From: an uncultured virus (IMG/VR IMGVR_UViG_3300010429_001900)
Lineage: Duplodnaviria; Heunggongvirae; Uroviricota; Caudoviricetes
Length of the DNA stretch: 64,000 nt
Virus record (IMG/VR): IMGVR_UViG_3300010429_001900
Direction: 5' to 3' (one strand)
Shown piece by piece: positions 5,975 through 15,499 of the stretch. The stretch's first letter is position 1, and each line of letters starts with the position of its first letter. Below the pieces are notes generated by a model. The model did no database searches and had not been told where the DNA came from. It was given only the letters and a program-made list of their open reading frames with translations. The position numbers were made by a program, and so were the translations under genes.

Positions 5975-6412
5975 TCAACCTTGTTTCGGCACGGACCGGA
6001 TGCGCGCGCTGGTGATCCGGCCGAGGTTGTCGTAGTTCACGTTGTTGATCTCGAACTCGCGAGGCGGCGCGGACTCGGGCGGCTGCACCGTGATGTGGTT
6101 GTGGTTCTCGATCGGCGTGGGCTGCACGTCGATGCGGTTCTCCACCAGGGTCTGCGGCACGTCGACCTTGTTCGTGACGTGCACCTGCGGCGCCTCCAGG
6201 CGCAGCTCGCGCAGTGCCGCGACGATGGCTGCAGGCCCGCCGCTCGCGTGCTCCTGCAGCGCCGCAACCAGCTCGCTCAGCGACGCGGCCACCTCCTCGG
6301 TGGCGTCCTTCTTCTGCCGCAACAGGTCCAGTGCATCCGCCAGGGCCGCGCTGACTTCCGCCAGCAGCAGCTCCAGGGGTTGCGAGTTGGATTCCGCCGT
6401 CATCCCATGCAC
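5975..6412 (-). CDS. Hypothetical protein
   Basis: 145 aa; helical N-terminus, then V.N.(I/V).V.P repeats; overlaps the end of the giant gene. Confidence 0.7.
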   Translation of the reverse strand: MHGMTAESNSQPLELLLAEVSAALADALDLLRQKKDATEEVAASLSELVAALQEHASGGPAAIVAALRELRLEAPQVHVTNKVDVPQTLVENRIDVQPTPIENHNHITVQPPESAPPREFEINNVNYDNLGRITSARIRSVPKQG

Positions 6413-9400
6413 TTCTTCAGCGAGTTGAGGACCGAGAGGCGCTTGCGCAGCTCGACGACCCGGTCCTGCGCGGCCTGCTCGTCTTGCAGCAGGGCCTGCA
6501 GTGCCGTGTCATCGGCAGGATTGTACGGAGCAACCGTTTGTGGCTCAACCACAGATTTCTGCGACTCCGGGCGCGCCGATTCGGCCGGCGCGGCATCGCC
6601 GACGCGGCCCTCGGTCCAGGTCCACTCCGGCATCAGGCCGGCCTTCTGGTCGGCGAAGACGGTGTCATCGGTGCGCGCGTTGCGGTTGGCCTCGCCGTGC
6701 GGCCCGTAGTTCAGCCAGCTGTTTTGCCCGCGGGTCTCGCTGGTGATGGCGCCGACAGCGTCGCCGGTGAACAGCCTGACGTGCGCCTGCCAGGCGTTCT
6801 CCTCGCCCTGAGCGCGAAACCCGCAGCCCTCCAGGCCGTGGCCGAAGGCGTCGTGCGCGGCGCGGAACAGGTCGTTGGCCAGCACGGGCGCCTGCTCCCC
6901 GTCGAGTCCGCCGACCGGCCAGGTCAGGCCGGTGTCCGAGAGCAGCGGGTTGCCGTCGGGGTCGAAGGCGGCATTGCTGCCGAAGCCCTCGTTGGTCGGG
7001 AACACACCCATCGAGCGGCTGGCGCGGATGTCGCGCATCGCATTCCATGGCGACGTGGCGTACTCGGCGTTCTCGGGGCGCTTCAGGTCGATGAACCAGA
7101 AGCGGTAGCCGGCCGCCACCAGCGCGTCGTACTGTGCGCGCGTCTGGCGGATCAGGTCGGCATACGCAGCCTTCACGCGCGGGTCTTGCGGCGCGTGCTC
7201 CATGGCCCCGTAGGCGGCGGCGATGCGGCTGGCGCGGCCTTCGTCGATCTCGGCGTAGGCATCCTGGCGCTTCAGGTCGATGCCGTTGTCGCGGGCGTAC
7301 TCCTCGGCGACGGCGACCAGCCGCGGGTCCGGCCCATGGAAGCCCGGCACGCGCGGCGCGCCAGGCAGAGGCGTCAGCGCTTCAGCATCTGCGCGTTCTG
7401 GTGACGCCAGCGCGCGATCCGCAGCGGCCCCGTCTCCGGCTCCTCGGCTTCGCGTCGCAGAGGCTCGGGCACCTCCGCCCACAGCTCCGCCGTCATCGTC
7501 GGGACTCCGTCCGGGTAGTTCATCGCCAGGTACGTCTCCAGGTTCAGAGGCATCCCCCTCTTCAGCATAAACTCCAGGGTCGCGTCCTGCCCAGCTAGGG
7601 GCGTCAATTCCGCCTCCAAGCTGGAGGGCCTGGTCTCTTGCGTCTTCATAGCTCAGTCGTCCTTTGCGGTACTTGTACCAGATTGCGTCGACGGCGTCGA
7701 CATTCTTCTGCTGCGGCTTGAAGCCCGGCACGAACAGCCCGCGCACAGCCTCCCAGGTGATCGACTGCAGCTCGCGCGGCAGCAGGCCCCGCTCGGCGGC
7801 CGCGCGGCGGTAGGCCTCCTCGTACAGCGCGTAGCTTCCTTCCAGCCCGGCGTGGGCGCTCTTCGGCCCACTGAAGTTGTGCATCACCTCGACCGAGTTG
7901 CCGGACAGCGCGCGCAGCAGCGCCGCGGCCACGGCGTGCGTGTCGATGGTGACGTGCCCGTTCGGGCTGTTCGGCACCAGGATGTTGTTGTAGAAGTTGC
8001 GGACCTTGTGCTTGCGGCCGAGCTGCTCGTTGATGTTCGCGAACGACCCGTCGCGGAAGATCGAGACGGCCTTCGCGATCGTCCCGTTCCCGCCCCAGGC
8101 CGGCTTGGCCAGTTCGCCCTTGATGGTGCGCGCCTCAGCCACAAGATCGCCCTCCGGCGACACGATCATGAAGCTGCGCGGGTTGTGGGCCTCGTCGTAC
8201 ACGCGCAGCCACATGGCGCGCTCGTAGTCCAGCTCAAGCTCGCCCAGCGACTTGCCCTTGATGGAATCGATGGCAACCTTGTAGACGGGCTTGCCGAAGA
8301 TCCGGTCGGCGGTCTCGGCCATCTGCCCGGACCAGCGGAAGGTCTGTCGCTCGGCCATGATCTGCGCCACGCGATCGGCCAGGCTCACGTTCATGAACCA
8401 GTCCTTCTGCGGGCTCAGTGAGGCCAGGATGCCGGCTGCCTGGGACGGCTCGATGCCGTACTTGCGCGACATCGTCTCGGCGATCTTGCGGGCGCCGTCG
8501 TACCACAGCTTGCTGCGCGCTCGGATCTCTTCCGGCACCTGGTCGTGCAGCCACACCAGGTTGTCGGTCATGAAGCGGACCTGACGCTCCAGCTGGCGCT
8601 CCGGCGTGGTCGCGCTTTTCGCCTCGCGGTAGCCTGGGTACTGCGTGACCAGGTCGGCCACCGCGGACATCCAGCCCTCCTGGCCGAGGCCAGCACTGAA
8701 GTCGGCGATCAGCAGGTTCTCGATCGAATCCTCGGGGGTGAACCCCTTCTTCGGCTTGGCCGACGGCGCGCGCGTGCTGACCTCCATCGGGTCGACGCGC
8801 TCCAGGTTGCGCTCGCCGCTGAAGCGCGTGGACGATCCGATGCGCTCCAGCTCGGCGTTGGCCTGCTCCTGGGCCTCGGCCGGCACCACCAGCGTGCCCG
8901 CGCGCAGCGTCGCGCCCGGGATGTTCGCCAGGTCGATGTCGCGCATCTCCCGCGACATCAGGGCCTTGCGCAGCTCGGCGGGCTCGGGCGCGGGCGCAGC
9001 GTCACTGTCCACCGGCACGTCCGAATGCTTCTTGCCCACCAGCACCGCGAAGCCCTGCGGCATCGCCGGGTCCAGGCTGAGGTAGCCATCGAAGCCGGCC
9101 TTCATCAGGGCCCGCTCCCAGTTGTTGGCGCCCGGGTTGGCCTTGCGCAGCCCCAGCGGGTCGGACCAGACGTCGTACAGGTTGTTCAGCTGGACGCGGT
9201 GCGCGTAGCCGCCCACGCCGGCCTCGGGGCGAATGCCGCTGCCCTTGTCGACGTAGAAGAAGATGCGCGGCCGGATGTCGGCGTTCTCGGCGCCTTCGAG
9301 GCGGGCCCGCTCGGCGCCCTTCAGTCCGGTGCCGTAGTGGGCGGAGCTGAGGGTGTCTCGGGCGGCGGTTCCGTAGTGGACACCGGTCGCAGATACGGAG

Positions 9401-12400
9401 CCCTCTTGCGGGCGTCCGTAGCTCGCTGCTGGCGCGTCAGCGCCTCCAGCCGCTGCAGCGACTCCTCCAGCGACCCGGCCCAGTCCTTGTCCGTCCAGGT
9501 TGTCACGGCCGGGAGTGTACGCCCGCGCCGTCGACTTCGTCGCGGCCTGCGTCGCGCGCAGGATCTCGGCCTGCATCGCCGTCGGGCTGACGCCGGCGTC
9601 CTTCAGGTAGGCCTTCAGCGCCTGCTTGTACGCGGCGCGCACGCCAGCCACGTCGGCGACGAACTGGTCGGTCTTGTAGCCCGGCGCGCCGCGGAAGGCG
9701 TCGAGCGCCTTCGTCAACACCGCCTCCAGCGCGGCGATCACGCGCGCAATCACCCCCTTGGACTCGGCGCCGGACTCGCGACTCAGCTCGGCGAACACGT
9801 CCGTCCAGAAGGCTGGGTCGGACATGACATTGCCCGCCAGGTCGGCGCGCATCTCCTCGGCCAGCCCCTCCGCGCTGATGCCTGGCATGTTGTAGTAGCG
9901 GCGGAAGCGCGCCATGCCGTCGGCGCTGACGCGGCCCTCCAGCGCGCGCTTGACGATCTCCGCGGCCTGCGGCAGCGTGCGCTCCAGCGTGTGCCAGAAC
10001 TCGTGCAGCATCACCGCCAGCGGCGACACCTTCGAGTCGGCGGCAACGTAGATCACGTCCGGCGCGCTCGGCACCGTGAAGCCGTCCGCCCCGCCCATGT
10101 CGGCCCGCGCGGCGTAGAAGCGGACGCGTCGGCCGAGAGCCTTCGCCAGGGCGCTGAGGGCCTGCGCCGGCCCGCTTTCCGGCGTCGGCACCAGCGCGAC
10201 GCTGACGCGCTTGCCGCCGGGCTCCTGGACTACGACTCGGTCGGCGGCGTCTCCTGCAGCGCGTCCTCGTTGCGCTGCGGGTTGATCCTGACCTCCTGGC
10301 CCTGCGCGTCCACCAGTCTGCCGTCCGGCAGCCGGATCAGCTCGACGCTGTCCTTCGTCTCGTCCTTGTCCATCGCGGGCCTTTCCGAATTCAGGGCTGA
10401 CCGGCTTCTTCGCCGCGGCCGATTTTACCCAGGCCTTGAACTGCGCGGGCGTCATCTCGGTGATCGCGCCCAGGCCGGTCCAGCCCCGCTCGTAGTTCGC
10501 CAGGTAGCCCTCTCGCGCGGCGGCCTCGCTGGTGAAGCCCATCATCACCTTGTGCTCGTCGAACGAGCCGTCGGCGTTGCGCTGGTCGACCACGAAGATC
10601 TTGTCGCTGTCCGGACGCGGGCCGATGAACACGTCCACCGCGTCGCCGTCGGCGCCCTTCGTGCCGGTCACGTCGCCGTAGTGGTGGGCGAGCTTGGTCT
10701 CCCAGGCCTTGCCGTCCGGCGATACGCCGCGGCGCATCGAGCCGCGCGGGTTCTCGATCGACACGCGCACGCCGTTCAGGTTGGCGATGTGGCCCTTCTT
10801 GTAGTTGCCGGCCTCGGCCTGCGCCGGCGTCGGCTCGGCGCGGTCGTTCTTCGGGCTGGCGGCGGCCTCGTGGGCCTGCGCGTCGATGTGCGCGGCGATG
10901 GCGGCGCGTGCCAGCTGCGCGTCGGCCCGGCCGTCGAGCGCCAGCTCATTGCCGGTCTTGCTGTCGCTCAGGATGAAGCCGACCCCGTCGCGCTGGTGGA
11001 CCGTGTCGAAGCCCATGGCGACGAGCTGGTCGAGCTGCGCGCGGCGCTTGCGGTTGACGGCCGTGCCGGCGCCCCCGGGAATGGCGGGCGCACCTTCGGT
11101 GGCCACTGCATCTTCGGTCGCCACCTCGTCGCGCCGGGCCGACTGGCGCATCTGCTCCAGCGCCAGCTTGTCCGTCGCCGACAGGTTGGCCGGGATATTG
11201 GCCGCATCGTTCAGGATGCGCATCTGGTCCGGCGTGTAGGACGAGCGGGCCTTGGCCACCAGCGCGCGCTGCTCTGCGCTGCGCAGCACCGGGATGGTCT
11301 TCAGCGCCGAGATCACCGCGTCGGCTGCGGGCGGCTCGGCCGGCTCGGCCGGCTGGGCGTTGGCGGCGTCGCGGGCCTTGGCGGCGGCCGCGCGCTCCCG
11401 GGCCAGCTGCTGCAGGCGGCTGTCGCTGCGCTCGTTCTGCTCCCTGGCGCGGTCGGCGGCCTCGGTGCTGGGCTGGCCCTGCGTCGAGCGCGGCGCCTTG
11501 TCCAGCGCGATGCCGGTGGCCTGCGTCAGCTTCTGGTCCTCGGTCAGCGCCGGCGCCAGCGTCATGTCGACGCGGTCGTAGGGCTGGCCCAGGCCGGCCT
11601 CGGACAGGATCTGCGCCTCGGCCGGCGAGGCCACGCCGTTGCGCTCCTCGATGCTCTTCAGTGCACGGGTGATCACCGCCTGGCGCGGGTCGTCCTCGGC
11701 CTTGCGCTGGGCGACCTGGCCGGCGAGCGCCGCGGATTCGAGGCCTTGCTGCTCTTGCGCGCTGATCGGTGCAGATTCGGCGACGTTCGCTGCCGTTTCT
11801 GCAGCGGGCGCGCGCAGACGCATCTCGCGGTTGACGCCCATCTGGGCGCGGATCTGCTCGCGCTCAGCCTCGGTGGTGGCGGCGGCCAGCTGCTCCTGCA
11901 GTTGCGCCTCGCGGTCGACGGCGGTGCGCCGCTGCGCCACGCTCGGCGCCGCGCCCGGATCCTGGGCGTGCTGTCCGGCCCAGCCCATCGCGAACTCCAG
12001 GCGCGTCATGGCCTGCTCGCGCTGGTGCTGCTGGGTCGACGGGCTCGATGCCGTGGCCAGGTCGTTCAGGAAGGCCTTGACGTCCACCGGCGAGTCCTCG
12101 CCGCGCAGCGCGTCGATCAGGCCGCCGTCGCGAACCTGCTGCTGGATGGCCTGGGCCTTCTGCGTGATCGGGTCGACCTGCGGCTCGGGCTGCGCCGGCG
12201 CGGCTGCCTGCTGCGCCTCGTTGCCAGACACCGCCGCCTTCGACAGCGGGCTGTTCGGCTCGGCCGCCTTGGCCTTGACGTCGGACAGCGGATCTGCGGC
12301 GGGGGGCAGCGCGGCGCGCGGCGCGTGCAGCGCTCCAGAAGCTCCTCCCAGAGCAAAGCCGCCGGCAGCGCCCATGCCCGCGTTTTCGCCGACGCCCTCG

Positions 12401-13842
12401 CTCAAGTCCTGGGCCGGGTCGACATGCCGCGCCAGCGAGACATTGCCGGCGAACTGCCCGCCCCCCTCTTCAAGCCCCTCTCCGGCGGTCTCCCCAAGCG
12501 CTGCTTTGGCGGCGTGGAGTGCGCGCGCCGGCAGCCCGCCCTTGGCAATGACAGATTTCGCGGCGCCCCCGACCAGCGCGCGCTCGATGGCCGTTCCGCC
12601 AGGCACGGCATTGGCGATGACGGAGATGGCAAACGCCGCGGGCAGCGCCTCGCGCGCCGCCGTCAGGGCCAGCTCGTGCTTGACCTGGCCCTCGCTCTCG
12701 CCGGCCTGCGTGCGTCGCGCGAACTCCGGATTGGCGGCCCACTGCTCCGGGGTCTTCTGCATCGCCCGGTCGTACAGGTCGCCGACCACGTCCGCGCCCT
12801 GCTGGACTCCGTTGACGCCCACCGCGGCGGCCACGCCGAACTTGGACGCACTGGAGGCGATGGCCTGGCGCGCCGCCAGCGGCACCGGCCCGGCGGACAT
12901 CGCATTCATCATGGCGCGCGCGCCGACAACCGCAGCCGTAGCCCGTCCGGCCGCAGCCGCGGGAATCAGGGAGGCGATGTTGCTGGCGGCCAGGTCGCCG
13001 ATCAGCGCCGGGTCACTCAGCGTGGTAGCGAACGCCGCCCAGGCTTTTCCGAGCACGGAGTCTTCGGCGTCGATGGCCGCGCTGCGTGCCTCGCGCTTGC
13101 CTTGCAGCGTGGTACTCTGCAGGCCTTCCAGGTACTTCTGCGCCTCGCCGCCCGCCGTCGAGACCGCATTGTCCATGTCGCCGGTCGCCAGGCCGTAGAG
13201 GTCGCCGCCAGCCTTGAACAGGCCCACCAGGCCGGAGCCAAGCCCCAGCGCCGTATCCTTCGCGGCCTCTCCCCAGCTGCGCGGCTGCGCCGCGGCGGCA
13301 GGCTTGATGTCGATGTAGTCGTCGCTCCGCGCAGGCTGCTGAGCAGGCATTGCCGGCTGCGCGCCAAGATGCTGCGCCGCCATGGCCGCGGCAGCCACAC
13401 CCTTGCTGATGTAGTCCTTGTCCTCGGCATAGCCGACGCGCTTCAGCTCGGAGAAGAACTTCTGCGCATCGCCGCCGGCGCCCATGGCCGGCCTGTACAT
13501 GCGACCCATCAGGCCGACGAACTCGTCGCCGAAGGCGTCCGGCGTGGCGAAGGCGCGGTAGGCGTCGCGCTTGCCGTTCTGGTTGTCGGTGGCCATCGGC
13601 CCGCGGCCGCTGGGGTCCTTGATGTTGCCCAGGTTGTTCGTGCCGGGGATGACGCTCTTGCCCCAGCCGGTCTCCAGTCCCCACTGGCCGAGCAGAACCT
13701 GCGGCTCGACGCCCAGCTGGCCGGCCACGCGCTTCGCCAGCGGCAGGTACTGCTGGACGAACTCGGCGACCTTGCCGCCGCCGGTCGGTGCGCTCGGCGC
13801 CAGCAGGTCGTCAGCGGAGAAGGAGATGAGGCTTTGGCTCAT
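6400..13842 (-). CDS. Giant polyvalent internal virion protein (glucosaminidase + InPase-like + HExxH metallopeptidase-like + ART-like + DUF7178-like + C-terminal HxxxxH domain)
   Basis: N-term LGQWGLETGWG..NNLGNIK..YAED (FlgJ-type glucosaminidase); NYKKGH..SIENPRGS..HYGDVTGTKGADGDAVDVFIG (InPase-like); LHEFWH; GVHYG...IFFY; WYDGA..SLSPQKDW..KVRNFY..VTIDTHA..LQSITW; FRAAHDAFGHG..GEENAW. Confidence 0.9.
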   Translation of the reverse strand: MSQSLISFSADDLLAPSAPTGGGKVAEFVQQYLPLAKRVAGQLGVEPQVLLGQWGLETGWGKSVIPGTNNLGNIKDPSGRGPMATDNQNGKRDAYRAFATPDAFGDEFVGLMGRMYRPAMGAGGDAQKFFSELKRVGYAEDKDYISKGVAAAAMAAQHLGAQPAMPAQQPARSDDYIDIKPAAAAQPRSWGEAAKDTALGLGSGLVGLFKAGGDLYGLATGDMDNAVSTAGGEAQKYLEGLQSTTLQGKREARSAAIDAEDSVLGKAWAAFATTLSDPALIGDLAASNIASLIPAAAAGRATAAVVGARAMMNAMSAGPVPLAARQAIASSASKFGVAAAVGVNGVQQGADVVGDLYDRAMQKTPEQWAANPEFARRTQAGESEGQVKHELALTAAREALPAAFAISVIANAVPGGTAIERALVGGAAKSVIAKGGLPARALHAAKAALGETAGEGLEEGGGQFAGNVSLARHVDPAQDLSEGVGENAGMGAAGGFALGGASGALHAPRAALPPAADPLSDVKAKAAEPNSPLSKAAVSGNEAQQAAAPAQPEPQVDPITQKAQAIQQQVRDGGLIDALRGEDSPVDVKAFLNDLATASSPSTQQHQREQAMTRLEFAMGWAGQHAQDPGAAPSVAQRRTAVDREAQLQEQLAAATTEAEREQIRAQMGVNREMRLRAPAAETAANVAESAPISAQEQQGLESAALAGQVAQRKAEDDPRQAVITRALKSIEERNGVASPAEAQILSEAGLGQPYDRVDMTLAPALTEDQKLTQATGIALDKAPRSTQGQPSTEAADRAREQNERSDSRLQQLARERAAAAKARDAANAQPAEPAEPPAADAVISALKTIPVLRSAEQRALVAKARSSYTPDQMRILNDAANIPANLSATDKLALEQMRQSARRDEVATEDAVATEGAPAIPGGAGTAVNRKRRAQLDQLVAMGFDTVHQRDGVGFILSDSKTGNELALDGRADAQLARAAIAAHIDAQAHEAAASPKNDRAEPTPAQAEAGNYKKGHIANLNGVRVSIENPRGSMRRGVSPDGKAWETKLAHHYGDVTGTKGADGDAVDVFIGPRPDSDKIFVVDQRNADGSFDEHKVMMGFTSEAAAREGYLANYERGWTGLGAITEMTPAQFKAWVKSAAAKKPVSPEFGKARDGQGRDEGQRRADPAAGRQTGGRAGPGGQDQPAAQRGRAAGDAADRVVVQEPGGKRVSVALVPTPESGPAQALSALAKALGRRVRFYAARADMGGADGFTVPSAPDVIYVAADSKVSPLAVMLHEFWHTLERTLPQAAEIVKRALEGRVSADGMARFRRYYNMPGISAEGLAEEMRADLAGNVMSDPAFWTDVFAELSRESGAESKGVIARVIAALEAVLTKALDAFRGAPGYKTDQFVADVAGVRAAYKQALKAYLKDAGVSPTAMQAEILRATQAATKSTARAYTPGRDNLDGQGLGRVAGGVAAAAGGADAPAASYGRPQEGSVSATGVHYGTAARDTLSSAHYGTGLKGAERARLEGAENADIRPRIFFYVDKGSGIRPEAGVGGYAHRVQLNNLYDVWSDPLGLRKANPGANNWERALMKAGFDGYLSLDPAMPQGFAVLVGKKHSDVPVDSDAAPAPEPAELRKALMSREMRDIDLANIPGATLRAGTLVVPAEAQEQANAELERIGSSTRFSGERNLERVDPMEVSTRAPSAKPKKGFTPEDSIENLLIADFSAGLGQEGWMSAVADLVTQYPGYREAKSATTPERQLERQVRFMTDNLVWLHDQVPEEIRARSKLWYDGARKIAETMSRKYGIEPSQAAGILASLSPQKDWFMNVSLADRVAQIMAERQTFRWSGQMAETADRIFGKPVYKVAIDSIKGKSLGELELDYERAMWLRVYDEAHNPRSFMIVSPEGDLVAEARTIKGELAKPAWGGNGTIAKAVSIFRDGSFANINEQLGRKHKVRNFYNNILVPNSPNGHVTIDTHAVAAALLRALSGNSVEVMHNFSGPKSAHAGLEGSYALYEEAYRRAAAERGLLPRELQSITWEAVRGLFVPGFKPQQKNVDAVDAIWYKYRKGRLSYEDARDQALQLGGGIDAPSWAGRDPGVYAEEGDASEPGDVPGDELPGRSPDDDGGAVGGGARASATRSRGAGDGAAADRALASPERADAEALTPLPGAPRVPGFHGPDPRLVAVAEEYARDNGIDLKRQDAYAEIDEGRASRIAAAYGAMEHAPQDPRVKAAYADLIRQTRAQYDALVAAGYRFWFIDLKRPENAEYATSPWNAMRDIRASRSMGVFPTNEGFGSNAAFDPDGNPLLSDTGLTWPVGGLDGEQAPVLANDLFRAAHDAFGHGLEGCGFRAQGEENAWQAHVRLFTGDAVGAITSETRGQNSWLNYGPHGEANRNARTDDTVFADQKAGLMPEWTWTEGRVGDAAPAESARPESQKSVVEPQTVAPYNPADDTALQALLQDEQAAQDRVVELRKRLSVLNSLKKCMG
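6520..6548 (-). promoter_or_regulatory. Internal sigma70-like promoter with operator in spacer
   Basis: TTGAGC-17-TACAAT; spacer contains CACAAACGGTT. Confidence 0.6.
7374..7649 (-). CDS. Overprinted nested small protein (alternative frame of giant gene)
   Basis: AAAGGA RBS; LEFMLKRGMPLNLETYLAMNYPDGVP..AELWAEVPEPL reads like real protein while the host frame is G/D/A/R low-complexity. Confidence 0.65.
   Translation of the reverse strand: MKTQETRPSSLEAELTPLAGQDATLEFMLKRGMPLNLETYLAMNYPDGVPTMTAELWAEVPEPLRREAEEPETGPLRIARWRHQNAQMLKR
9321..9506 (-). CDS. Overprinted nested small protein
   Basis: MTTWTDKDWAGSLEESLQRLEALTRQQR; host frame becomes G/A-rich linker here; no clear RBS. Confidence 0.5.
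   Translation of the reverse strand: MTTWTDKDWAGSLEESLQRLEALTRQQRATDARKRAPYLRPVSTTEPPPETPSAPPTTAPD
10230..10373 (-). CDS. Overprinted nested small protein (47 aa)
   Basis: GGAAAGG RBS; MDKDETKDSVELIRLPDGRLVDAQGQEVRINPQRNEDALQETPPTES*, almost all codons G/C-ending. Confidence 0.6.
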   Translation of the reverse strand: MDKDETKDSVELIRLPDGRLVDAQGQEVRINPQRNEDALQETPPTES

Positions 13843-13855
13843 GCGGTGGCGTCCG

Positions 13856-15499
13856 TTACTGGTTCAGGATGCGCTGCCCGGCAGCGTAGGTCTCGGCGGC
13901 GCCCGGCTGGCCGGGGATGCGCAGGCCCTGCAGGCCGCCCACCGTCAGGCGCTGCGCCGGCGCGCGCGGCGCGGCCGGCTGCGCCTTCGGCTTCGGCAGC
14001 GCGGTGCCGACCAGCGCCAGCTTGCGGTCCAGGTTGGCCAGGTCGGCCTGCAGCAACTGCTGGGCGCGCTGGCGGATCTGCGCCTCCTGCTCGGGCGCCT
14101 TGGCGATGGCCTGGCGCACGTACTGCTCGACCGAGGCATTGGCCTGCTCGACCAGCGCGGCGCGCGCCTTCATGTCGAAGGCTGCCTCGACGAAGCGCTT
14201 CTGGTAGGCGGCGTCGCCCTGCTTGGCGACCAGCGCCTGCGCCGCCTGCTTCAGCTGGGCCTTGTCCAGGCCGCGCGCCTCGGCGTTCTGCGGCGCGACG
14301 AAGTCTGGCTTGATCAGCACGCGCGTGCCGTCGTCGTCGACGAAGACCTGGTCGATGGCCCCGGTGGCGGCGTTGACCGACGGCGTGGTGCGCGCCGGGT
14401 CGACCGCGGCCACGTAGGCCGCGCGGGCCGCGCGCTCGGGCGTCATGCCCGGGTTGTGCTGCAGCACGCTGCCGAGGTGCGCCTCGGCGTCCGCGCGCTG
14501 GCGCGCCGTCAGCTTGTCCTCGCTCTTCTCGGCGATGTCGGCCAGGATGCCGCGCGCAGACTCCAGGGGCGTCGCCGGCGGCTTGGTGCTGCGACTGCCG
14601 CCAGTGCCGCCAGTGGCCCCGCCTCCGTCCGCAACCGCATTGGGGTCGCGCGAGATGGTCACGTTGCCGTTCTCGTCGCGGATGGCGGCGCTGCCGCGGC
14701 CGAGCGACGTGACGCCGGCGCCCTTCACGCGCTCCAGGGTGATCTTCTGCTGCAGTTGGGCCTGCTCTGCCTGCAGCTTGGCCCAGGTCTCCGGCGAGTA
14801 GTAGGCGCTGAAGGCGTTGAGCAACTGCTCGCGCGCCTGCGGGCCGGTGAATTCGCGCGTCGAGGTGGCGCCTGTGTCCTTGTTCTGCAGCGTGATGCGC
14901 ACGCCGCCGGGGATGTCCTCGACCGCCTTGACGCCGCCGTTGTTCGGGTCGGCGTCGAAGATCTCGCCGATCTGCCGGGCCGTCGTGCTCACGTCGGCGT
15001 TGCCGGCGGCCACCTGCTGGAACCGAGACGCTGCGCGCCCGAAGGCGATCTTGTCGGCAGCACCCTCCAGCTCGAAGGCCTTGTCTGCCTGCTTGTTCTT
15101 GCGCAGCACGGCCGCCTGCTCGCGCAGCACCTGGTCGTAGGTGCGGTTCTTCACGGCCGGCAGCTGCGTCGCCGACGGCGTGCCTTCGTTGTCGACGGTG
15201 ATCTGGCTGGTCTCGGGGTTGGTCTTGTTCAGGTCGACCGGTCCGGCCGGCGCGATCTCGGCCAGCTGATCGCGCGTCTGGTCCTGCAGGGCCTGCTCGT
15301 CGACCAAGCGCTGGCGCTGGCCTGCGCGGAACTCGTCCACCTGCAGCGCGGCGGCACGGGCCTTCGCCGCATCGGCGCGGCGCGCCGCCAGGTCGGCCTG
15401 CTCGGCTTCCCAGGCCTGGCGGCTGGCCTCCTGGTCCATGCCGCGGCGAATGTTGGTGTAGGCCCCGCCGAGGCCGCCCAGGAATGCGAATGCGCTCAT
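13856..15499 (-). CDS. Putative internal virion (ejected) protein
   Basis: 547 aa, MSAFAFLGGLGGAY start, helical A/Q-rich, directly upstream of the giant gene. Confidence 0.7.
   Translation of the reverse strand: MSAFAFLGGLGGAYTNIRRGMDQEASRQAWEAEQADLAARRADAAKARAAALQVDEFRAGQRQRLVDEQALQDQTRDQLAEIAPAGPVDLNKTNPETSQITVDNEGTPSATQLPAVKNRTYDQVLREQAAVLRKNKQADKAFELEGAADKIAFGRAASRFQQVAAGNADVSTTARQIGEIFDADPNNGGVKAVEDIPGGVRITLQNKDTGATSTREFTGPQAREQLLNAFSAYYSPETWAKLQAEQAQLQQKITLERVKGAGVTSLGRGSAAIRDENGNVTISRDPNAVADGGGATGGTGGSRSTKPPATPLESARGILADIAEKSEDKLTARQRADAEAHLGSVLQHNPGMTPERAARAAYVAAVDPARTTPSVNAATGAIDQVFVDDDGTRVLIKPDFVAPQNAEARGLDKAQLKQAAQALVAKQGDAAYQKRFVEAAFDMKARAALVEQANASVEQYVRQAIAKAPEQEAQIRQRAQQLLQADLANLDRKLALVGTALPKPKAQPAAPRAPAQRLTVGGLQGLRIPGQPGAAETYAAGQRILNQ

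Follow-up and report, generated by a model that had tools for sequence, protein, structure and literature searches.

In phage lambda, the spanins Rz and Rz1 are encoded by a pair of genes of which the smaller is wholly embedded in the +1 frame of the larger, and the two products work together; across phages, pairs of the Rz/Rz1 type occur in embedded, overlapped, and separated forms. Here we analyzed a 64,000-nucleotide stretch of DNA from an uncultured virus of the Caudoviricetes (IMG/VR record IMGVR_UViG_3300010429_001900), hereafter the window, in which a giant polyvalent virion-type gene, hereafter the host gene (6400..13842, minus strand; 2480 amino acids according to the list of open reading frames, ORFs, and the translation), contains three small ORFs, N47, N61, and N91, in its +1 frame. 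Judging by comparative sequence analysis, N91 is a genuine protein-coding gene, overprinted in +1 on the spacer behind the DUF7178 domain. We consider it likely, as a whole, that N91 is such a gene whose product would be a partner of DUF7178, and that N47 and N61 are lineage-specific segments through which the giant frame is read. Rz/Rz1 is the closest analogue, since N91 and DUF7178 likewise occur embedded, overlapped at the 3' end (locus L038), and separate (L035). Yet N91 is unrelated to Rz1 in sequence and in predicted fold, and that N91 and DUF7178 function jointly is something we only infer. Unlike in Rz/Rz1, moreover, N91 is hosted by the gene of a 2480-residue multidomain virion protein, which it overlaps in an interdomain spacer and in no functional part.

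The host gene resembles the polyvalent proteins (Iyer et al. 2017; PMC5512222), which also combine many domains, InPase and lysozyme-type domains among them, in a virion-gene setting. The giant protein fits this description: Pfam recognizes Glucosaminidase, InPase, and DUF7178 domains in it, and it has an HExxH-motif module and one more domain at the C-terminus. Among PHROGs it matches families of DarB-like, internal head, minor head, and virion structural proteins; the gene upstream of it matches a virion structural PHROG. In the main text of the polyvalent protein study neither "frameshift" nor "overlapping" occurs, and no genes nested in polyvalent genes are described there (PMC5512222). 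The literature searched, as far as listings and abstracts go, describes no genes nested in or overprinted on those of polyvalent or virion proteins and no endonuclease genes embedded in an alternative frame, nor does it mention DUF7178. We thus rate N91 as a new conserved family of overlapping genes in a new setting.

A first-pass annotation, made from the letters of the window alone, had proposed that three small genes are overprinted in one alternative frame of the host gene, each directly after an enzyme-like domain. All three are present on the same strand as the host gene, each starting 3n+1 bases after the host start: N47 (10230..10373, minus strand; 47 amino acids, ATG start) over host residues 1157-1205, N61 (9321..9506, minus strand; 61 amino acids, GTG start) over residues 1446-1508, and N91 (7374..7649, minus strand; 91 amino acids, ATG start) over residues 2065-2157. 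Their placement is also as described, N47 following the InPase domain (10423..10824, minus strand, host residues 1007-1140; PF18823, E = 2.1e-55), N61 the HExxH-motif module (9523..10227, minus strand, residues ~1206-1440, with the motif at 1280-1284, window 9991-10005), and N91 the DUF7178 domain (7651..8745, minus strand, residues 1700-2064 as modeled from alignment and structure model). In the three stretches the host frame is indeed rich in Gly, Ala, Arg, and Asp, and the two ATGs, those of N47 and N91, are preceded at 6 and 10 bases by the purine-rich motifs named as ribosome-binding sites. The chance background is considerable: the host gene contains 18 same-strand alternative-frame ORFs of at least 40 amino acids, 14 of them in +1 and 4 in +2. 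ORFs of such size are therefore unremarkable by themselves, and it is composition that goes beyond chance. Over the whole host gene, the guanine plus cytosine (GC) content at codon positions 1, 2, and 3 (GC1/GC2/GC3) is.72/.51/.88; only in three stretches (host residues ~1141-1215, ~1441-1490, and ~2061-2175) is host GC3 as low as.38-.65 and host GC1 as high as.75-.97, and the remaining Gly/Ala-rich parts of the protein have a GC3 of at least.72. With low GC3 and high GC1 in the same places, it is the +1 frame that carries the genome's coding pattern there, so that the per-frame check suggested in the first-pass annotation sees this pattern pass from the host frame to +1 in exactly these three places. 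Read in their own frame, N47 (.70/.36/.98) and N91 (.65/.46/.88) display it; N61 (.67/.64/.79) is intermediate, with a flip limited to its first ~45 codons. In the eleven other +1 ORFs of the host gene, nested GC2 is.76-.97.

N91 belongs to a protein family of its own. An exhaustive HMMER search recovered 75 proteins at E ≤ 1e-3, 9 of them at E ≤ 1e-10; nearly all are 52-125 amino acids long and align to N91 residues ~14-67, with a conserved core that is clear in 35 aligned members. Neither Pfam (none above its cut-off) nor PHROG holds a family for N91, N47, or N61, and two more members of the N91 family are likewise without a PHROG match; tblastn searches with N91, N47, N61, and two further family members against 50,697 phage records returned no match. 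One 2177-residue protein (P0129) had seemed to carry tandem N91 domains in 13 stretches, which we treat as spurious, as it is a Calx-beta repeat protein. In many relatives of the host protein, a low-complexity spacer of 83-117 residues is kept between DUF7178 and the next domain, and in the host frame this spacer is only ~45% identical, versus 73-87% for the flanking domain.

The placement of N91 was followed through scans of viral contigs from two sides. With host-protein alignments, which are blind to the nested frame, 10 loci were obtained, and in 10 of 10 DUF7178 is immediately followed by a +1 ORF of the N91 family, through which the host frame stays open. Setting aside the locus that is a fragment of the window itself, and counting each of two near-duplicate pairs (L007/L009 and L013/L014) once, leaves seven lineages besides the window. 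Host identity among the relatives that keep N91 in +1 ranges from 44% to 87%; at the lower end (L012, L013/L014, and L015; 44-52%) the downstream domain is another one, and the nested N91 is kept. Small-protein alignments, which are blind to the host, yielded 12 new loci with a more varied picture. In 8 of the 12 (GC 0.47-0.60), the +1 ORF directly follows a DUF7178 tail, being fully nested in six (GC 0.47-0.52); in the other two the host ORF ends 55 nucleotides into the small ORF (L038) or just past it (L042). Three loci (L034-L036) have a free-standing gene of the N91 family, convergent with a 691-residue DUF7178 gene and overlapping its 3' end by 69 nucleotides. In the last (L037), the gene stands among small genes near a putative terminase-like gene, the latter recognized by eye from its translation. 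The N91 family is thus encoded in four ways, that is, inside a giant gene, over the 3' end of a DUF7178 gene, convergent with one, and, rarely, alone. In the low-GC relatives, stops occur in the +1 frame at a density of 3.4-5.9 per 100 codons, and of the 39-115 stop-free +1 runs in a host gene the N91 run takes a rank between 1st and 9th. A scan of species-representative genomes added one locus in Jannaschia seohaensis, +1-nested after a DUF7178 tail. This locus (L105; strain DSM 25227, NZ_UETC01000013.1, 42818-49009), in which the N91 homologue is nested in a frame of ~700 codons, is presumably a prophage-like element, and the cultured bacterium is a possible experimental handle for nested N91.

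As for the modules of a domain and a nested partner that had been proposed for all three ORFs, the proposal stands in part: N91 is kept in +1 after DUF7178, whereas N47 and N61 have neither homologues nor a general linkage to their upstream domains. Lack of homologues and of domain linkage had been named beforehand as what would speak against the proposal, and it is what we find for N47 and N61 and clearly not for N91.

Selection within the N91 overlap was estimated from 12 fully nested lineages (66 pairs), using NG86 ratios of nonsynonymous to synonymous change (dN/dS). Mean pairwise differences at nested codon positions 1, 2, and 3 are.43/.42/.51, so that the host third position is the least variable and the host first position the most variable one. 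In the DUF7178 tail, taken as a control, host positions 1, 2, and 3 differ by.40/.31/.66, the normal pattern. Median dN/dS in the overlap is 0.58 for the nested frame versus 1.08 for the host frame, and it is lower in the nested frame in 59 of the 62 usable pairs; in the control tail the relation is reversed (0.40 in the host frame, 1.00 in +1), these values resting on 14 usable pairs owing to saturation. The constraint check proposed for the nested frame thus comes out in favor of N91, since both dN/dS and position-wise differences indicate that purifying selection is stronger there. Variation between close strains can be read in the same region from a 53.9-kilobase contig of run X5, 4% diverged from the window and identical with the contig of protein P0006. 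It carries at least five variants in N91, three of which are synonymous in the nested frame yet alter the host residue; among the variants listed, one is silent in the host frame with a nested Arg-to-Lys change, and one combines a nested Ile-to-Val with a host Asp-to-Gly change. Taken together with composition, these comparisons indicate that within the overlap the nested frame bears both the codon signature and the stronger purifying selection, and that the host frame is a nearly neutral, low-complexity spacer between domains.

The beginning of N91 has the features of an independent start. The likely initiation region (7653..7665, minus strand) comprises a Shine-Dalgarno-like motif at 7660-7665 and a +1-frame stop at 7653-7655, one codon before the ATG, and the same arrangement of motif and stop recurs in L007-L011. 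Of the 13 loci with an ATG ahead of the domain, 11 have, as judged by eye, a purine-rich Shine-Dalgarno-like motif before that ATG, and in most loci the nested ATG comes 0-1 codon after a +1 stop. A stop beside the ATG, together with a Shine-Dalgarno-like motif, favors independent initiation over entry by frameshift, and N91 would then be translated on its own from this internal motif and ATG on the giant mRNA.

What the product does is suggested by its neighbor. The Pfam core of DUF7178 spans host residues 1751-1835, and conservation extends to about residue 2064, with invariant columns in the alignment. An AlphaFold2 model of residues 1700-2064 has a mean predicted local distance difference test score (pLDDT) of 82.4 and a predicted template modeling score of 0.80. 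VIA-align has HhH-GPD DNA glycosylases or a related queuine-salvage enzyme in every one of its top 24 rows, with Z scores of 9.4 (3n0u; root-mean-square deviation 3.8 over 184 aligned residues), 9.1 (7u07), 8.8 (7ugk), and 7.2 (1xqp), and down to 4.1, unrelated rows following below. We treat this resemblance of the predicted DUF7178 fold to HhH-GPD glycosylases as a lead. N91 itself is modeled as a small helical domain (mean pLDDT 72; core 81-86) with an acidic core, the net charge being at most zero in 35 of 35 aligned members (median -3; median isoelectric point 4.7). A few rows in which the model resembled bacteriocin immunity proteins (Z 2.7-3.1) were judged meaningless. In a subset of the family that includes the N91 of the window, the acidic core is followed, via a variable acidic linker, by a basic helix (N91 residues ~74-91; window 7374-7430); other members end right after the core.

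The product of N91 may act on the DUF7178 domain, itself possibly HhH-GPD glycosylase-like in its predicted fold. Linkage in three gene arrangements, combined with a small acidic protein and a glycosylase-like domain, suggests a masking or escorting partner; the most likely role would be that of a bound partner, either an inhibitor of DUF7178 during assembly or an assembly chaperone. N91 would, in addition, be made beside the spot where DUF7178 has just left the ribosome, which would favor such a role. Small acidic inhibitors of host uracil-DNA glycosylase are known from phages, namely Ugi and p56. N91 is like them in its acidic core and in standing next to a domain with an HhH-GPD-like predicted fold. 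On the other hand, the uracil-DNA glycosylase targeted by Ugi and p56 has a different fold, N91 is predicted to be all-helical and matches no known fold, and both inhibition and glycosylase activity are hypothetical here. The toxin-immunity pairs of polymorphic toxin systems, to which the first-pass annotation had likened the three ORFs and their domains, offer another comparison, N91 being also a small gene tightly linked to one enzymatic-looking domain; yet it lies inside the larger gene and not downstream of it, conservation is seen for one pair of the three that were proposed, and toxicity, binding, and neutralization are hypothetical here.

N47 and N61 tell a different story. Neither has a homologue in cultured phages; in a collection of 5.8 billion proteins N47 matched only itself and N61 nothing, and pattern scans of viral contigs returned the window's own fragment only. 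In the giant genes of five relatives there is no homologue of either, and the InPase-to-HExxH junction is coded in the host frame; among 58 metagenome loci with an InPase tail there were 0 homologues (best E 8.1 for N47 and 0.18 for N61). By sequence comparison, then, N47 appears to form no domain-plus-partner module with InPase, and we see no general link of N47 and N61 to their upstream domains. That N47 might be a frame-shifted copy of the in-frame segment that precedes HExxH in relatives was also considered and found unsupported (syntenic tblastn E 1.5, profile E 1.2, no BLASTP alignment). Where N61 lies, the window has an insertion of ~40 residues relative to L026 and L028. P0006 is ~100% identical to the window over most of the giant protein, with the exception of the HExxH module, which has been exchanged and is only 42% identical; at the nucleotide level, 745 bases (window 9609-10355; the HExxH module and N47) are replaced in the X5 strain by 754 unrelated-looking bases, which looks like a recombinational module swap inside the giant gene. 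At the N47 site, P0006 likewise carries a linker that looks off-frame, and the possible +1 peptides of this linker fit N47 better than 493 of 500 shuffles (7 of 500 reach the score), a weak and indirect indication that the off-frame state at this site may be old and maintained. N47 and N61 would thus be lineage-specific inserted or frame-shifted segments, with their coding signature in +1, read through by the giant frame. We lean against N47 being a working gene, without dismissing it, and more so in the case of N61.

Insertions of this kind have counterparts in related giant genes. A compositional scan flagged long +1 stretches that turned out to be HNH endonuclease genes (PHROG 3377, E 1e-45 to 1e-52; the ORFs concerned, in L030, L058, and L029, have no Pfam match). 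In L030 (9206-9796), an HNH ORF of 197 codons lies in +1 inside an open frame of 3508 codons, and in L058 (222-719) the InPase-to-HExxH junction, where N47 lies in the window, holds one of 166 codons, likewise in +1; in L029 (~6900-7559), the HNH part continues the reading frame of the InPase ORF upstream of it, and the giant gene is broken into frames of 1463 and 2137 codons. HNH ORFs in the +1 frame of open genes indicate that giant genes tolerate foreign ORFs by reading them as Gly-, Ala-, Arg-, and Asp-rich spacer, and N47 and N61 may, by analogy, resemble them. The common frame follows from composition: an insert in +1 puts its GC-rich third positions at host first positions, which largely removes host stops, and in the N91 region the +2 frame is full of stops. 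Only +1 leaves the host open in GC-rich DNA, so the three ORFs can share a frame with no common function. Phages are known to accommodate homing endonucleases by means of introns, inteins, gene splitting, and the bypass of T4 gene 60 (PMC5009743); in T4, insertion of the endonuclease gene mobA split a host gene (genes 39 and 60), and a 50-nucleotide gap is bypassed (same source). Like T4, L030, L058, and L029 hold an endonuclease gene inside a large gene and keep the host product; unlike in T4, the host frame of L030 and L058 reads through the insert in another frame as spacer, and only L029 is split.

Several observations weigh against the reading of N91 as a gene partnered with DUF7178 and of N47 and N61 as lineage-specific segments. 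In L037, no DUF7178 occurs within 3 kilobases of the N91-family gene, and phage zth2-2 (L106; OL791268, 37975-40470, unannotated) has a DUF7178 tail and no ORF of the N91 family; furthermore, the loci were gathered by pattern-based scans of subclades and do not represent DUF7178 proteins at random. In overlapping frames, naive dN/dS is biased, and many of the pairs compared are strongly diverged and near saturation. On the structural side, helical models may commonly reach Z scores of 9 or less, and for the DUF7178 model Foldseek had no match at E ≤ 0.001. Confidence in the N91 model is only moderate (pLDDT 72), and it matches no known fold (Foldseek against PDB, none at E ≤ 0.001; best VIA-align Z 3.1; best BFVD hit, at E 0.086, an unnamed viral protein of 77 amino acids). 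Lastly, N61 starts with GTG and has no ribosome-binding motif, and the positive evidence on N47 and N61 consists of composition and an indirect compatibility test. Apart from its bearing here, zth2-2, whose DUF7178 tail runs into another domain with no spacer, provides a natural N91-less comparison.

Other explanations fare less well. All three ORFs, N91 included, could be nonfunctional relics, segments once read in +1 whose signature has not decayed and from which no protein is made. The abundance of chance alternative-frame ORFs in so GC-rich a gene (the 18 mentioned above) agrees with this, as do the lack of homologues of N47 and N61, the GTG start of N61 with no ribosome-binding motif, and the short compensated indel pairs seen between strains, which suggest that local double frameshifts may occur. 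Relics, however, would hardly keep ORF, start, and peptide in frame across GC contents of 0.44-0.70 and down to 44% host identity, as N91 does, nor show a substitution pattern that favors the nested frame or exist as stand-alone copies. Even at N47, the off-frame state is seemingly common to the window and P0006, where the adjacent module is 42% identical, and host GC3 is still.38-.65, a state hard to keep in the absence of selection. We regard the relic explanation as improbable. An insert of the selfish, hitch-hiking sort, like the nested HNH genes and with no functional tie to DUF7178, is a slightly more remote explanation of N91: the HNH genes hold +1 positions at domain junctions of related giant genes, so foreign ORFs can evidently settle there, yet the position of N91 is fixed after one domain even as the domains upstream and downstream vary, N91 remains beside DUF7178 in the convergent arrangement, and it has no nuclease family match, being moreover, to our knowledge, too small for known homing enzymes.

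The least probable of these explanations, in our estimate, is that N91 is reached by a programmed +1 frameshift at the end of DUF7178, giving a shorter isoform of the giant protein that ends in the N91 domain. The sole hint of a fused form is P0140 (119 amino acids), in which DUF7178-tail-like sequence runs straight into the N91 domain in one frame; it could be a real fusion, a frameshift product, or an assembly error. Phages do use frameshifts to make alternative C-termini, as reported in PMC5009743. Against this, the +1 stop 0-1 codon before the ATG in most loci means that the shift would have to occur inside the ORF, the ATG is conserved with its Shine-Dalgarno-like motif, the separate, convergent, and stand-alone members of the family have their own starts, and P0140 is one of 75 matches. 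A bolder extension of the preferred reading, that N91 is a gene acting with DUF7178, would make polyvalent virion genes landing strips for partners and homing endonucleases alike, which would settle in +1 at domain junctions and be read through as spacer; N91 would then be a cis-encoded, Ugi-like inhibitor or escort that is made from an internal start next to the nascent DUF7178 domain and silences an injected DNA- or nucleoside-glycosylase-like effector until delivery, and N47 and N61 would be younger hidden genes. We put this forward as a speculation that is rather unlikely in its entirety.

The preferred reading bears on annotation and on the biology of injected proteins. Standard gene callers skip genes that lie wholly inside a longer gene on the same strand, which leaves the N91 family (at least 75 clusters) unannotated wherever the giant gene is intact. 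DUF7178, an uncharacterized domain of injected phage proteins, gains a structural lead in its predicted glycosylase-like fold and a genetically linked candidate partner. An insert in +1 that is read as interdomain spacer, as seen for N91 and the HNH genes, would be a general route by which long phage genes tolerate embedded genes, with a bearing on the build-up of polyvalent proteins, on the persistence of homing endonucleases in the absence of introns or inteins, and on coding capacity missed in phage annotation.

Regarding the remainder of the host gene, a Glucosaminidase domain is recognized by Pfam at residues 34-148 (minus strand). The HExxH-motif module has conserved columns and 26 relatives, and the Pfam search of the giant protein assigns it no family. 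The domain that follows the N91 linker (6403..7371, minus strand, host residues 2158-2480) is conserved in relatives, with no Pfam match at E ≤ 0.01 and no family assigned; for the C-terminal third as a whole (residues 1900-2480), 2800 relatives were found. A blastn search with the giant gene matched 19 of the 50,697 phage records, none covering 80%, and the closest virus record (G001) is an identical fragment of the window and thus uninformative. The GC content of the window is 66-73%, and opposite the giant gene runs an antisense ORF of 1922 codons (8545-14313, plus strand), a mirror-frame artefact of the kind usual in GC-rich coding DNA and no gene candidate. Finally, deletions of one base, each paired with a one-base insertion at a distance of 2-4 bases, occur in strain contigs at ~8128-8130, 8641-8644, 9538-9542, and 10442-10445; these may be tiny compensated frameshifts in the giant gene, or effects of alignment.

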